52,566 bases of DNA from IMG/VR virus record IMGVR_UViG_3300044627_003899, positions 1-52,566 of that record; one strand, written 5' to 3'. Below the pieces are notes generated by a model. It was not told where the DNA came from and did not search any database. It saw nothing but the letters and a program-made list of their open reading frames with translations. Within the stretch, counting starts at the first letter, position 1. Each line of letters starts with the position of its first letter. Origin of the DNA: a virus. Taxonomy: Duplodnaviria > Caudoviricetes. Shown in pieces: positions 2,922 to 52,196 of the stretch. Position numbers and translations under genes: made by a program.

Positions 2922-3952
2922 AAATAGAAAATAAACATACCGCTCTTTCTGCGAGTAGGATAAAGACCCTAGAGAAATGTAGTTGGTCTTATTGGTGCAG
3001 CTATGTCTTAAAGCTTCCAGAGAAAAGTAATGATGGGGCCAACAGAGGGAACGTTGTCCACTTTACTTTGGATGTTCTAGCAAAAGCTAAAAGAAAGCAT
3101 TATGTTAAAACCATTTTAAAAGAAAAAGATGTATTTGTTATTCCTTCGGTTCGCAGGTTGATGCTTCGACACGCCAGAGATCATCGCGTATCAGATCCTG
3201 ATAATATTGAGATGATCAAGCAGATGACTCTAACTGCATTAGAGTATGATTTCTGGGGCGACTCTAAACTGAAGCCTATTAAAGATATTGGAGAAAGAGA
3301 TTTCGATATCACTGTAAACAAGGGCAAAAAGAAGTATAGGATCAAAGGATTTATCGATAGGCAGTTTATCTACGAAGACTTTACTTCTGTTGTTCGTGAT
3401 TATAAAACGAGCAAGGCGGTATTTGCGGGCAAGGACGCAGAGGATAACTTGCAGCATCTAATGTATACCCTTGCTACAAAAAAACTCGATCCAGAGCACA
3501 ACGTGTCGATGGAATTCTTGTTTTTAAAGTTTTCTCTTAAGGACAAAGGCAAGGGAAGTGGTCTTTTAAGAATGGACCCATTGTCCAAAAAAGATCTTAC
3601 CGATTTTGAGAACCATCTTACAGAAGTGCAAAAGGTGGTTGATAACTTTAGCGAGGCAGATGCTTATTCAAATTTTGCTGCGGATAAGCCTATGCCCTCA
3701 GATGGTTCCTTTACCGGAAAGCTTTCATGCGGCTTTGCGAAATACAAGGGCCAGCTAAAAAAAGATGGCAACCCAATGTGGCATTGTCCCTTTAAATTTG
3801 GTTTTAATTACTACGCTCTTAGAGACAAGGATAATAAGATTATCAAAACGTTTCTTGAAGACGATAAAGATGAAGCCTTTAAGTTAGCAAAGGTTGAGCA
3901 AAAAGTTACCAAAGAAACGTATCTTGGGTGTCCAAAGCACTTGACATCCTAG
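2918..3952 (+). CDS. PD-(D/E)XK exonuclease, RecB/AddB/Cas4-like
   Basis: LSASRI..C, G..VH, GFIDR, DYKTSK, Q..MY; N-terminal plus C-terminal cysteines. Confidence 0.8.
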   Translation: MKIENKHTALSASRIKTLEKCSWSYWCSYVLKLPEKSNDGANRGNVVHFTLDVLAKAKRKHYVKTILKEKDVFVIPSVRRLMLRHARDHRVSDPDNIEMIKQMTLTALEYDFWGDSKLKPIKDIGERDFDITVNKGKKKYRIKGFIDRQFIYEDFTSVVRDYKTSKAVFAGKDAEDNLQHLMYTLATKKLDPEHNVSMEFLFLKFSLKDKGKGSGLLRMDPLSKKDLTDFENHLTEVQKVVDNFSEADAYSNFAADKPMPSDGSFTGKLSCGFAKYKGQLKKDGNPMWHCPFKFGFNYYALRDKDNKIIKTFLEDDKDEAFKLAKVEQKVTKETYLGCPKHLTS

Positions 3953-45918: not shown

Positions 45919-46230
45919 ATGGACGAGCGCACTCCCATTGCTCAAAGCTCCGTTGACTCTTACGATGGCAATGCTCCTTCTGCCACCGCCTCTTCAACGA
46001 TGAAGACGTACAACTTCATCTTAAACAAGTATCGGGCCGAGTTTGAAAGGGCGCTAACTTATGACGAATCGAAGGACCGCAAGCATCAGAAGGACATGCG
46101 TAAGTTAGCAAGAGAAAAGCAGCGTCAGGCAGAAATCGATCAGATCGAAAGAGATAATGCTGCAAAGCAAAACTTTGAAGATTTCAAAGAACGGGTAAAA
46201 CAAAAAGGCATCGTTACTAATTTTTATTAA
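45919..46230 (+). CDS. Hypothetical coiled-coil protein
   Basis: 103 aa ORF. Confidence 0.65.
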   Translation: MDERTPIAQSSVDSYDGNAPSATASSTMKTYNFILNKYRAEFERALTYDESKDRKHQKDMRKLAREKQRQAEIDQIERDNAAKQNFEDFKERVKQKGIVTNFY

Positions 46231-46237
46231 TTTAAAC

Positions 46238-46314
46238 GCGAGGATAGCTCAACTGGATAGAGCAACAGTTTTCTAAACTGTCGGTTCCGAGTTCGATTCT
46301 CGGTCCTCGCGCCA
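46238..46314 (+). tRNA. tRNA-Arg(UCU)
   Basis: GCGAGGA/TCCTCGC acceptor, ACAGT-TTTCTAA-ACTGT, GTTCGATTC, encoded CCA. Confidence 0.95.
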
Positions 46315-46319
46315 CTTTC

Positions 46320-46391
46320 GGGCGAATAGCTCAATGGTAGAGCAAACAACTCATAATTGTTAGTGTGCAGGTTCGACCCCTGTTTCGCCCA
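46320..46391 (+). tRNA. tRNA with CAU anticodon (Ile2 or elongator Met), no encoded CCA
   Basis: GGGCGAA/TTCGCCC, AACAA-CTCATAA-TTGTT, GTTCGAC. Confidence 0.9.
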
Positions 46392-46757
46392 TTATTTTTT
46401 ATTATGACTCGGATGATGAAGCTCCATATGACAATTCAAGCACAGCAGTTCGCATTTTTCAGCTTCCTCAATCAATCGCTCCCATTTTTTGTTCGATAGA
46501 TTTCTAAGATCGAGCGAAAACAATTTTGTTTTAGGATTTTTATGGTGAAATGAAAGTGAAGCATAATTCTTGTCATAAGAGCAGCATTTACATTTCCCGC
46601 CAAACATTTGTACCAATTTAATTTTTCTTTCGACGCCTCTTTTTTGTTGCATTTCGTAGTTTTGATGGGCATGGTTCAAAGCAGTTGATTTACATTGCAA
46701 AGAACAATATTTAGTTTGACGCCCAATTAACTCTTGACTGCACATTAAACATTTCAT
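46392..46757 (-). CDS. HNH endonuclease (Zn-binding), antisense, abutting the tRNA-CAU 3' end
   Basis: GGKCKCCSY..LSFHHKNP..KCELLCLNCHMELH; N-terminal CLMC..YCS..C. Confidence 0.85.
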   Translation of the reverse strand: MKCLMCSQELIGRQTKYCSLQCKSTALNHAHQNYEMQQKRGVERKIKLVQMFGGKCKCCSYDKNYASLSFHHKNPKTKLFSLDLRNLSNKKWERLIEEAEKCELLCLNCHMELHHPSHNKK

Positions 46758-46762
46758 ATAAT
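46734..46762 (+). promoter_or_regulatory. Near-consensus sigma70 promoter inside the 5' end of the HNH gene
   Basis: TTGACT-N17-TATAAT. Confidence 0.75.
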
Positions 46763-46803
46763 CATATTACACTTATTATGAAGAAATTCATAATCTTTTT
46801 TAA

Positions 46804-46992
46804 ATGAACATCACTCAAAAAGTCTTGATCGCCCTTGTCATCATCTCCAATGTCTTCTTTGCTGTCGCTTTCGGTTATGAGCTTGGCAAAAGAAATGTTC
46901 GCCAAGAAGCACTTTTGAATGGACACGCAGCTTATATCTACGACAGTGAAGGCGTGCCCCACTTTAAGTGGAGCGAGTGCATTCAATTTTAA
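46804..46992 (+). CDS. Small membrane-anchored hypothetical protein
   Basis: N-terminal TM segment. Confidence 0.6.
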   Translation: MNITQKVLIALVIISNVFFAVAFGYELGKRNVRQEALLNGHAAYIYDSEGVPHFKWSECIQF

Positions 46993-47006
46993 TTGATTAA
47001 AAAATT

Positions 47007-47273
47007 ATGAAAAAAGGTTACGTTATCGAATACAATGTTCGTTGCATTAAGACTGGCAAGCGGTTTCCAGACAACATTATTCCTTCAGAGATGTTTGGTG
47101 ACACCTTCACAGATATTATGAATGATAGCAAGATTGGCGACACTTCTATCGTTGAGAACATTGAAGGTATTTATTCTGAAGGGGCAGGAATTGGAAATCG
47201 TATGCTTTCAACACTTCTATTGGACACTACGGTTCCCGTAATGTATGACCAAATGTTTGTGGTAACTAACTAA
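47007..47273 (+). CDS. Hypothetical protein
   Basis: 88 aa ORF. Confidence 0.6.
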   Translation: MKKGYVIEYNVRCIKTGKRFPDNIIPSEMFGDTFTDIMNDSKIGDTSIVENIEGIYSEGAGIGNRMLSTLLLDTTVPVMYDQMFVVTN

Positions 47274-47279
47274 CTTTTT

Positions 47280-47354
47280 GGTGCTATAGCTCAATGGTAG
47301 AGCAGCGTCCTTTTAAGTCGTTGGTTGTGGGTTCAAATCCCACTGGCACCACCA
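47280..47354 (+). tRNA. tRNA-Lys(UUU)
   Basis: GGTGCTA/TGGCACC, GCGTC-CTTTTAA-GTCGT, GTTCAAATC, CCA. Confidence 0.92.
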
Positions 47355-47361
47355 ATTTTAT

Positions 47362-47437
47362 CGTCCCGTAGCTTAACGGTTAGAGCAAGCTCTTTATAAG
47401 GGCTAGGTTCTGGGTTCAAATCCCAGCGGGACTACCA
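47362..47437 (+). tRNA. tRNA-Ile(UAU)
   Basis: CGTCCCG/CGGGACT, AGCTC-TTTATAA-GGGCT, GTTCAAATC, CCA. Confidence 0.9.
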
Positions 47438-47820
47438 ATTTTATTCAGATCAATTAAGCCAGCATGAACTTCACAATGGCAGTTCTTGCAGAGTAAAACG
47501 CATTTATCTAACTCTCCTTTTAAAGATTCAAAAGAATTACTTTTCATCGTAGCTATTCCAAAATCTTTTTCTTTTGGATCAACATGATGGAAGTCCAGAG
47601 AGCCTTGAAATTTATTGTAGCCACAAACAAAACATTTGCCGCCCTTGTACTCAACGCATTTGCGCTTAATATTCTTTCTTAAAATCTTGTCTTGTTTGGC
47701 ATCGCATTTCTTGCAACTATAAATTTTGTTTTTTATACGAGATGGATAAAAGTCGTGAGTTTCTTCCTTGCAGTGCCTACAGATGATATATTTGTTTACT
47801 GCCTCTTGACTAATTTCCAT
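47416..47820 (-). CDS. HNH endonuclease (Zn-binding), antisense, overlapping the tRNA-Ile 3' end
   Basis: YKGGKCFVCGY..LDFHHVDP..KCVLLCKNCHCEVH; N-terminal CRHC..CKKC. Confidence 0.85.
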   Translation of the reverse strand: MEISQEAVNKYIICRHCKEETHDFYPSRIKNKIYSCKKCDAKQDKILRKNIKRKCVEYKGGKCFVCGYNKFQGSLDFHHVDPKEKDFGIATMKSNSFESLKGELDKCVLLCKNCHCEVHAGLIDLNKIGSPAGI

Positions 47821-47862
47821 TTTGAATGATTATATTTTTGTTATAAATGATTTACACATAAT

Positions 47863-48510
47863 ATGAAAATCGTCGCCTTATCAGATACTCATGGCTTGCA
47901 CCTCAATGTTAAAAACATCCCAGATGGCGACGTTTTAATTCACTGCGGCGATTTTTGCTCTTGGGGCAACTTAAAAGATACGCAAAAATTCTTGCATTGG
48001 TTTAACGCAATGCCCCACAAGCATAAAATTTTCATTGCGGGCAATCATGATGTTCTATTTGAAAAAAATAATGGCATCGCTAAGGCATTGGTCAAAGAAT
48101 GCCCAGAGCTAATTTACTTGGAAGATAGTGGCGTTTCTATTGATGGCGTGAACTTTTGGGGTTCTCCGGTAACGCCGACCTTTTTCAATTGGGCGTTCAA
48201 CCGCAATCGCGGCTCTGCTATCCGTAAACATTGGGAAGCTATTCCCGATGATACTGATGTTCTGATTAGTCATGGCCCACCGCATAAGATTTGTGATACA
48301 GTTCTGAGAGATCGCGGCTTTCCTGACGAAGTTGGCTGCGAAGAACTTGCCAAGAGAGTTCAGCAACTGAAGCTGAAACTTCATTTGTTTGGTCACATCC
48401 ACTTTTCTGGCGGATCTGAAAAGACCTTTGGCAGCACAATCTTTTCCAATGTTTGTCTCTGCAATGAAGATTATCGAATTGTGAACGAGCCCAAGGTTTT
48501 TATCATATAA
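47863..48510 (+). CDS. Calcineurin-like metallophosphoesterase
   Basis: SDTHG, HCGDF, AGNHD, SHGPP, FGHIH. Confidence 0.92.
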   Translation: MKIVALSDTHGLHLNVKNIPDGDVLIHCGDFCSWGNLKDTQKFLHWFNAMPHKHKIFIAGNHDVLFEKNNGIAKALVKECPELIYLEDSGVSIDGVNFWGSPVTPTFFNWAFNRNRGSAIRKHWEAIPDDTDVLISHGPPHKICDTVLRDRGFPDEVGCEELAKRVQQLKLKLHLFGHIHFSGGSEKTFGSTIFSNVCLCNEDYRIVNEPKVFII

Positions 48511-52109: not shown

Positions 52110-52196
52110 GGCCGTATGGTGGAACTGGCTATACACTACAGACTTAAAATCTGTCGCCCATTGGGATTGAGGGTTCAAATCCCTCTGCGGCTACCA
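52110..52196 (+). tRNA. tRNA-Leu(UAA)
   Basis: GGCCGTA/TGCGGCT, ACAGA-CTTAAAA-TCTGT, long variable arm, GTTCAAATC, CCA. Confidence 0.93.

Follow-up and report, generated by a model that had tools for sequence, protein, structure and literature searches.

T4 SegB, a GIY-YIG homing endonuclease encoded in a phage tRNA cluster, recognises the T-loop motif GGTTCRANTCC; its gene is absent from close relatives and is reported to transfer together with flanking tRNA genes in mixed infection (PMC2330249). SegB homologues are reported to be statistically linked to tRNAs, and SegB itself to amplify tRNA and other anti-defence genes, thus escaping defence, and to have been 'repeatedly domesticated' (PMC13096335). 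The F-Tfl enzymes of phage T5 are likewise named as homing endonucleases of a tRNA cluster (PMC2330249). Among protein genes located within or next to tRNA arrays, those for HNH homing endonucleases are described as the most widespread, and they may spread the arrays (PMC5966550, PMC6409571, PMC8421152), and the available portions of two further papers (PMC7344957, PMC3017599) contain nothing on a linkage between HNH genes and tRNAs. Here we describe two genes, HNH1 and HNH2, in the tRNA gene cluster of a virus of the class Caudoviricetes that is known from a stretch of 52,566 nucleotides (nt) (IMG/VR record IMGVR_UViG_3300044627_003899, positions 1 to 52,566; hereafter the window). We consider it probable that both are free-standing homing-endonuclease genes of one family, which combines a zinc ribbon with a McrA-like HNH domain (PHROG 2255), and that HNH1 was recently mobile together with a tRNA-Met block, while HNH2 is older and fixed. 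Members of this PHROG 2255 subfamily live almost exclusively in phage tRNA gene clusters.

HNH1 (46392-46757, minus strand) encodes 121 amino acids (aa) and HNH2 (47416-47820, minus strand) 134 aa, and a reading of the window from its letters alone (hereafter the sequence-only reading) had described both as docked antisense on the 3' end of a tRNA. The junctions are indeed as tight as claimed. The stop codon TAA of HNH1 (TTA on the plus strand, 46392-46394) directly follows the discriminator A46391 of tRNA-Met(CAU) 'type A' (46320-46391, plus strand, 72 nt), which ends in ...TTCGCCCA, followed by TTATTT, and is the sole one of the five tRNAs of the window without an encoded CCA. HNH2 overlaps tRNA-Ile(UAU) (47362-47437, plus strand, CCA encoded) by 22 nt (47416-47437), so that the last 22 nt of this tRNA are read antisense and the stop codon TGA (TCA on the plus strand, 47416-47418) lies within the T-loop TTCAAAT. 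Both proteins are related, as had been stated: within the C-terminal half 32 of 70 residues (46%) are identical (BLASTP E 6e-17), and the N-terminal parts gave no BLAST alignment. The zinc fingers of HNH1 and HNH2 had been taken to be of different kinds. This view had to be given up, as an alignment with 23 database relatives revealed one common architecture of an N-terminal CxxC...CxxC zinc ribbon, a basic helix and the HNH core. Among these 25 family members C63, C66, H78, H79, C111, C114 and H119 are invariant and N113 and H115 near-invariant, and HNH1 and HNH2 both keep all of them (CxxC...HH...CxxCH...H, N), the catalytic residues being intact. The PHROG 2255 profile 'HNH endonuclease' matched residues 3-120 of HNH1 (E 1e-17) and residues 6-124 of HNH2 (E 9e-30). 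Pfam PF01844 stayed below threshold for HNH2 (E 0.052) and did not match HNH1, and NCBIfam returned nothing useful for the two proteins. An AlphaFold2 model of HNH2 reached a mean predicted local distance difference test (pLDDT) score of 83 and a predicted template modelling (pTM) score of 0.72. When compared with the PDB by Foldseek, this model matched nothing at E <= 0.001. Nearly all of the weak best-ranking entries were HNH nucleases (Cap5, Cas9 HNH, McrA, Gme HNH), and a sequence profile search of the PDB pointed to McrA (6ghc, E 0.004). Since many longer relatives bear extra helix-turn-helix domains (Pfam), HNH1 and HNH2 are minimal members of the family.

From a comparative perspective HNH1 appears to be a recently mobile insert, with a candidate unit that comprises tRNA-Met (type A), the antisense HNH1 gene and a 42-nt 5' flank with a palindrome, and that extends from 46320 to about 46799. 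Relatives were collected from IMG/VR and JGI metagenomes by means of a phosphoesterase 95-99% identical to the one encoded by the window, a metallophosphoesterase gene (47863-48510, plus strand, Pfam PF00149, E 2e-14) that served as bait and is the conserved right-hand neighbour of the locus. The collection contains eight distinct contigs that reach from tRNA-Met to tRNA-Lys(UUU) (47280-47354, plus strand, CCA encoded), with L005 being the same contig as L094, and L006 the same as L093. HNH1 is found in three of the eight (the window, L005 and L089), there together with the open reading frames (ORFs) ORF62 (46804-46992, plus strand; a small protein with no Pfam or PHROG match) and ORF88 (47007-47273, plus strand). 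Empty alleles, the search for which had been suggested by the sequence-only reading, were thus found for HNH1: between both tRNAs L003 and L092 contain ORF62 alone, and L004, L006 and L007 ORF88 alone. If compared to the window, L092 is 91% identical upstream and 97% identical in ORF62, while the stretch 46319-46803 is replaced. Three quite different tRNA-Met versions occur at this one locus, among contigs with 95-99% identical phosphoesterase genes; apart from type A, these are type B, which precedes ORF88 in L004 and L006, and type C, which precedes ORF62 in L092.

The boundaries of the block became visible in L035, the HNH1 of which is 78% identical to that of the window. In a blastn comparison similarity was limited to 46320-46799 (80.7% over 481 nt) and the flanks were unrelated, so the shared block consists of tRNA-Met from its first base, HNH1 and the 42-nt 5' flank. 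It is directly followed by a 23-nt piece, TTCAAGTCCCTCACCGCCCACCA, which agrees at 22 of 23 positions with the T-loop-to-CCA end of the type-B tRNA-Met (L004), yet at 15 of 23 with L035's own tRNA-Met; Rfam found no tRNA at this piece. In the simplest reading, a break in the T-loop of the resident tRNA-Met of L035 would have been followed by replacement of this tRNA with a donor block, which came with a tRNA-Met of its own. That an otherwise unrelated contig shares the HNH1 block, and that ORF62 and ORF88 are distributed as a mosaic, is what co-conversion entails. The tRNA-Met of L035 retains its CCA, and the HNH1 frame extends 35 nt into this tRNA. Consequently, the absence of CCA in the window, L005 and L089 is a later 3-nt loss and not a feature of the insert.

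Other HNH1-type genes, 53-61% identical to HNH1, show the same arrangement at other tRNAs. In L036-L039 the gene overlaps by 6 nt with the CCA end of a decayed tRNA-Met-like pseudogene, and in L041 and L042 its stop lies 2 nt from the 3' end of tRNA-Gly, within a cluster of 20-22 tRNAs. HNH1-type genes therefore abut three different tRNA 3' ends at 0-6 nt. We searched four lake-water runs as well, which are DNA and yielded short contigs that break at tRNAs. A contig of 976 nt from one of them, run X1, covers 46340-47315 with one mismatch. The same run contains a joint of 46391 to 47279, which was not counted as an allele, because its shorter side comprises 38 letters with 88% likeness and tRNAs of another organism may be its source.

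Within the 5' flank of HNH1, near the right end of the mobile block at about 46799, the palindrome ATTATGAA-N4-TTCATAAT (46775-46794) occurs as a single exact copy in the window. Exact copies exist in all 13 locus entries whose HNH1-type gene is at least 61% identical, while the other 308 loci have none; the arms are constant and the loop varies (GAAA, GTAG, TAGA). A function as intrinsic terminator is unlikely, as the RNA hairpin is weak (about -5 kcal/mol). The palindrome thus appears to mark HNH1-type cassettes, and as a putative cis element it is better supported than the promoter-like motifs discussed below.

HNH2 seems to be an older insert of the same kind, located at the 3' end of tRNA-Ile(UAU) and fixed in this phage clade. 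It was recovered from each of the 12 close relatives whose sequence covers this place, 10 times whole and twice cut by contig ends. An exact 34-nt word of tRNA-Ile was found in four IMG/VR contigs, all of which bear HNH2, and in no other context there; more distant relatives of the phosphoesterase mostly come without tRNAs. The search for empty alleles, successful in five contigs for HNH1, therefore gave none for HNH2, which is possibly no longer mobile. At tRNA-Ile(UAU) itself, the antisense overlap of 22 nt recurs in L242, where a relative 50% identical to HNH2 meets the tRNA-Ile(UAU) of that contig. In L165 and L166 the tRNA-Ile(UAU), likewise antisense, lies 34 and 123 nt from an HNH2-type gene.

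Swappable N-terminal domains had been proposed to distinguish both nucleases. While HNH1 and HNH2 share one architecture, an exchange of this part was found within HNH2 itself: in L006, L007 and L092 the N-terminal 40-50 codons (about residues 10-50) are replaced, with 27-50% DNA identity to the window, whereas tRNA-Ile is 100% and the catalytic half of HNH2 63-93% identical. The sub-clade with the replaced N-terminal part also has about 250 bp of extra DNA between tRNA-Lys and tRNA-Ile (L006:3221-3473, L007:4457-4709, L092:1757-2009). The other flank of HNH2 changes as well. In L003 and L091 an HNH2 of 92-94% identity stands against a very different 90-nt tRNA(UAU). Such tRNAs of 90-94 nt (L003:4381-4470, minus strand; L067:2559-2648; L165:3431-3521; L166:3517-3610) have a long variable arm (class-II shape), which is unusual for an isoleucine tRNA, and stand in for the ordinary 76-nt tRNA-Ile(UAU) beside HNH2-type genes in several contigs. 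In L088, tRNA-Ile and HNH2 are separated by an inserted ORF (L088:283-860) for a protein of 185 aa that resembles hexapeptide-repeat acetyltransferases. A 20-nt copy of spacer plus the first 14 nt of tRNA-Ile comes next, which looks like a scar of illegitimate joining at a hot spot. The tail of the protein reads IGSPAGI* in the window and LRDDKIIK* in L088, and it is longer in L003. Since the tails change with the flank, the conserved coding part of HNH2 ends at ...GLIDLN and its stop is borrowed from whatever lies beside it.

The homologue survey that the sequence-only reading had called for ties the whole family to tRNAs. A profile-guided scan of IMG/VR yielded at least 574 confirmed relatives, of which the best 80 loci were examined, four of them from the window's own clade. 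Among these 80, a tRNA lies within about 3 kb in 69, and the nearest tRNA is at most 100 nt from the ORF in 56 and at most 50 nt in 45, although these distances are approximate, as the ORF ends of this count are crude. After clustering of the 80 at 70% identity, 42 of 48 clusters come with a tRNA. In contrast, of 26 loci with more distant HNH genes 2 contained any tRNA, as did 4 of 28 loci with phosphoesterase relatives, both comparison sets including near-duplicate contigs. Despite the crude ORF ends and the sets not being dereplicated, the contrast is large. Two other generalisations fared less well. A preference for tRNAs that decode AUA is not the rule, for the tRNAs beside relatives include those for Asn, Arg, Glu, Gly, Asp, Trp, Cys and others. 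Antisense docking holds for HNH1 and HNH2, but is a minority arrangement in the family: 31 loci were found on the same strand as the tRNA versus 4 antisense, counting tRNAs that begin at most 60 nt from the stop, with the four antisense loci of the window clade counted apart. In bacterial genome bins, tRNAs were found at 18 of 80 loci. Many Patescibacteria matches there comprise the catalytic half alone and are mostly not adjacent to tRNAs, whereas full-length matches in bacterial bins adjoin them; two cyanobacterial genomes (L277, L300) contain full-length relatives antisense beside tRNA-Arg(UCU). The best match of HNH2 in the genome collection is a short contig binned as Flavobacterium.

We infer nuclease activity, a cut site and homing of HNH1 and HNH2 from their sequences. 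In a co-infection, the nuclease would act on a related phage whose tRNA gene is HNH-less and cut this gene within or close to the T-arm or the 3' end, and recombinational repair from the donor would copy in the nuclease gene along with the donor's own tRNA allele. Such repair would replace resident tRNA alleles and shuffle the neighbouring small ORFs, and in some members of the clade the putatively DNA-binding N-terminal part of HNH2 would have been exchanged. Because the inserts would end exactly at the tRNA, their frames would run on until a stop in the antisense tRNA, which may account for the abutting and overlapping stops. The flanks of HNH2 are mosaic in the same sense, as HNH2 genes of 94% identity stand next to tRNA-Ile(UAU) genes of two strongly differing kinds. 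One might go further and speculate that the mobile unit is a composite of a cleavage-immune tRNA allele, the antisense HNH gene and the palindrome, which acts as a drive for tRNA alleles, cutting the resident tRNA at the T-arm and overwriting it with its own copy. We put this forward tentatively and would not expect it to be correct. If it were, tRNA genes of lake phages would turn over much faster than their neighbours and could supply variants that escape tRNA-cutting host defences, and the same logic would apply to the pairs of tRNA-Ile(UAU) with HNH2 and of tRNA-Arg(UCU) with an HNH gene in unrelated contigs.

Several observations weigh against homing nucleases that target tRNA genes. No HNH2-less allele was found among the IMG/VR phosphoesterase relatives and the JGI metagenome contigs, so the proposal of a mobile tRNA-targeting family stands for HNH1 and for the tRNA linkage of the family, yet lacks its empty site for HNH2. 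L003 bears a type-A-like tRNA-Met without HNH1; thus tRNA-Met allele type and nuclease are not strictly linked. The putative T-loop cut site derives from one remnant (L035) and one decayed tRNA (L036-L039), and the approximations of the family count named above belong here too. Furthermore, all relatives are metagenome contigs, and assemblers can misjoin variants at identical tRNAs, such as tRNA-Lys, which is 100% identical among the variants. However, each arrangement recurs in several contigs, and the 976-nt contig of run X1 is a further point against misassembly. Finally, our literature search found no enzymatic or genetic study of PHROG 2255-type proteins, although supplements of surveys may list members.

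Besides mobile elements that act for themselves, the nucleases, and especially the fixed HNH2, could be domesticated helpers that are kept since cutting at tRNA genes benefits the phage, possibly by amplification or exchange of tRNA genes against host defences that target tRNAs or by exclusion of a competitor's tRNA region. This explanation overlaps with the homing one, and we hold it to be a possible though doubtful account. The presence of HNH2 in all 12 close relatives and the overlap with tRNA-Ile(UAU) kept in the 50%-identical relative L242 would fit to it, but an old selfish insert for which no empty sites are left would be just as likely to be fixed in one clade. The cluster also includes tRNA-Lys(UUU), a known target of anticodon nucleases. 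While the gene amplification and repeated domestication reported for SegB (PMC13096335) provide a precedent, no tandem amplification of the tRNA region was found in the window or its relatives. It could be argued, on the other hand, that the proteins do not target tRNAs at all, and that tRNA clusters are permissive sites for small mobile genes, with tight junctions resulting from genome compaction. Many small ORFs do reside in phage tRNA regions (those of T5, and ORF62 and ORF88 here), as do unrelated nuclease families (T5 heg, GIY-YIG SegB). Nevertheless, we regard this as quite improbable, given the contrast between 56 of 80 best relatives within 100 nt of a tRNA and 2 of 26 distant HNH loci with any tRNA, the L035 block that begins at the first base of a tRNA and is followed by the T-loop-to-CCA remnant of another allele, and the three different tRNA 3' ends that are met at 0-6 nt.

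The sequence-only reading had favoured cassettes, in which each insert brings its own promoter (GTGTAA) and an outward plus-strand promoter (TTGACT...) that re-drives the downstream genes and so avoids polarity. In favour of this model, ORF62 starts 5-7 nt past the tRNA-Met-CCA in the HNH1-less L003 and L092, but lies 412 nt away from the tRNA in the window. Indeed, the insert carries a putative sigma-70-like site TTGACT-17-TATAAT (46734-46762, plus strand; 11 of 12 positions, the best local match), which overlaps the HNH1 start codon, and ATTACA-17-CATAAT (9 of 12), both facing ORF62. The arms of the palindrome read CATAAT on both strands and could act as a two-way -10 element. The letters of the two motifs are present as described: GTGTAA on the minus strand at 46767-46772 and 47852-47857, TTGACT on the plus strand at 46734 and, within the first HNH2 codons, at 47806-47811. 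However, GTGTAA occurs 14 times in the window versus 16.6 +/- 4.0 in shuffles, lies at unequal distances (9 and 31 nt) from the ATGs of HNH1 and HNH2 and is absent upstream of HNH2 in L006 and L007, and the idea of a shared promoter box was consequently rejected. Nor is the window enriched in sigma-70-like sites, with 3 versus 2 expected at 11 or more of 12 positions (84 of 100 shuffles have at least one) and 18 versus 27 +/- 5 at 10 or more; the promoter match at the HNH2 site (9 of 12) is at the chance level of the scan. The -35 TTGACT of HNH1 reads TTGATT in L035 and is lost in L036. In addition, no more than 9 of 49 crude gene starts are preceded by a Shine-Dalgarno word, even if loosely defined, and the DNA ahead of the starts is rich in A. 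Translation in the host may thus not depend on Shine-Dalgarno pairing, and the host's signals may differ from the E. coli type, so that the sigma-70 consensus is perhaps not the host's. One motif stands out. The 9-mer CTCTTGACT, which contains the TTGACT at 47806-47811, has two copies in the window, one at the 5' end of HNH1 and one at that of HNH2, and no others. At the HNH2 site TTGACT is kept in all aligned relatives, and the 9-mer persists even in L006 and L007 with their replaced N-terminal coding DNA. Except perhaps for this 9-mer, the motifs are no more than chance would give, and we consider the cassette model unlikely. Taken together, homing into tRNA genes remains our preferred reading.

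The surroundings of the locus fit to a large lytic phage, as the window comprises genes for DNA polymerase, ribonucleotide reductase, a Lon-like protease, rIIA/rIIB and tail proteins. It is a 52.6-kb fragment of a virus record estimated to be 36% complete, has a G+C content of 39.5% and was detected in at least 17 lake-water runs. In a DNA search against the phage collection, matches of the region were tRNA-sized and nothing was longer, and therefore no close cultured relative of the region exists there. ARAGORN predicted five tRNAs, all on the plus strand: a small cluster (46238-47437) that opens with tRNA-Arg(UCU) (46238-46314, CCA encoded) and contains tRNA-Met, tRNA-Lys and tRNA-Ile, and a fifth, tRNA-Leu(UAA) (52110-52196, CCA encoded). 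CCA is thus encoded in four of the five (Arg, Lys, Ile, Leu), with tRNA-Met as the exception; its label tRNA-Met(CAU) may stand for an elongator Met or a lysidine-type Ile tRNA. In the four lake runs, the summed contig depth was 79-219 over tRNA-Lys (47258-47331) and 32-86 over tRNA-Arg (46222-46295), versus 4-10 over neighbouring genes. Given this depth and the many different continuations, the exact tRNA-Lys and tRNA-Arg sequences are common to many genomes in the same waters. ARAGORN also reported a tRNA with the anticodon UUA, which reads the stop UAA (L070:5740-5810), in a tRNA cluster beside a phosphoesterase relative.

Phage tRNA genes are now viewed as counter-measures to host defences that cut tRNAs, and SegB was recently shown to remodel them. 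The locus described here adds a second, unrelated and uncharacterised nuclease family, which is tied to tRNA genes about as tightly as SegB. It offers natural alleles with and without the nuclease gene, as well as a remnant that hints at where the DNA would be cut, and it opens the question of whether such elements drive the fast turnover of tRNA alleles in phages. Nothing is overturned by these results, as earlier publications had already linked HNH genes to tRNA arrays in general.

Among described phages, the same family is found in Felix O1 (ORF44, 45, 47), in Certrevirus (PcCB7V, CR3) and in vibriophages of the genus Schizotequatrovirus, with 41-58% identity in tblastn. Homologues lie between tRNA genes in Felix O1, in Pectobacterium phage PcCB7V and in the KVP40-like Vibrio phage TCU-VP04-AIR2. 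Like those of the window, the HNH genes of these phages are separated from tRNAs by spacers of 0-15 nt or overlap them shortly, but in contrast they lie on the tRNA strand, with the 3' end against the 5' end of the next tRNA. The Felix O1 genome paper lists six HNH genes and, in its available portion, draws no link to tRNAs (PMC3185647). A motif scan suggested tRNA 3' 'remnants' beside the HNH genes of Felix O1 and PcCB7V; by Rfam these proved to be whole, weakly scoring tRNAs and were discarded as remnants. The tRNA-like genes in question (L082:2419-2497 and 3097-3183; L081:1405-1491) are unannotated in the Felix O1 and PcCB7V records and lie directly upstream of HNH genes, partly under annotated starts of coding sequences.

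The heg genes of T5 (F-TflI, F-TflII, F-TflIV) resemble the locus as HNH-type genes between tRNA genes, and the 3' ends of hegC and hegD overlap the next tRNA gene (NC_005859 annotation). However, they share the strand of the tRNAs and encode longer proteins (193-227 aa), and relatedness was not adopted, since HNH2 and hegA share a 21-residue match at CxxCH (BLASTP E 4e-4) and hegC and hegD gave nothing significant. The surveys of tRNA arrays in bacteria, plasmids and mycobacteriophages likewise place HNH genes beside tRNAs, but are descriptive. With SegB the locus has in common a free-standing nuclease gene in a phage tRNA cluster, and the L035 remnant, too, breaks at the T-loop. SegB differs in its GIY-YIG fold and in having its gene on the tRNA strand, whereas the proteins of the window are of the HNH type, are encoded antisense and are known from sequence alone. 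Membership in the GIY-YIG Seg family is thus rejected, and the resemblance is one of niche and of the presumed way of working. Both HNH genes in tRNA arrays and T-loop targeting by SegB having been published, the locus of HNH1 and HNH2 is a well-documented further case.

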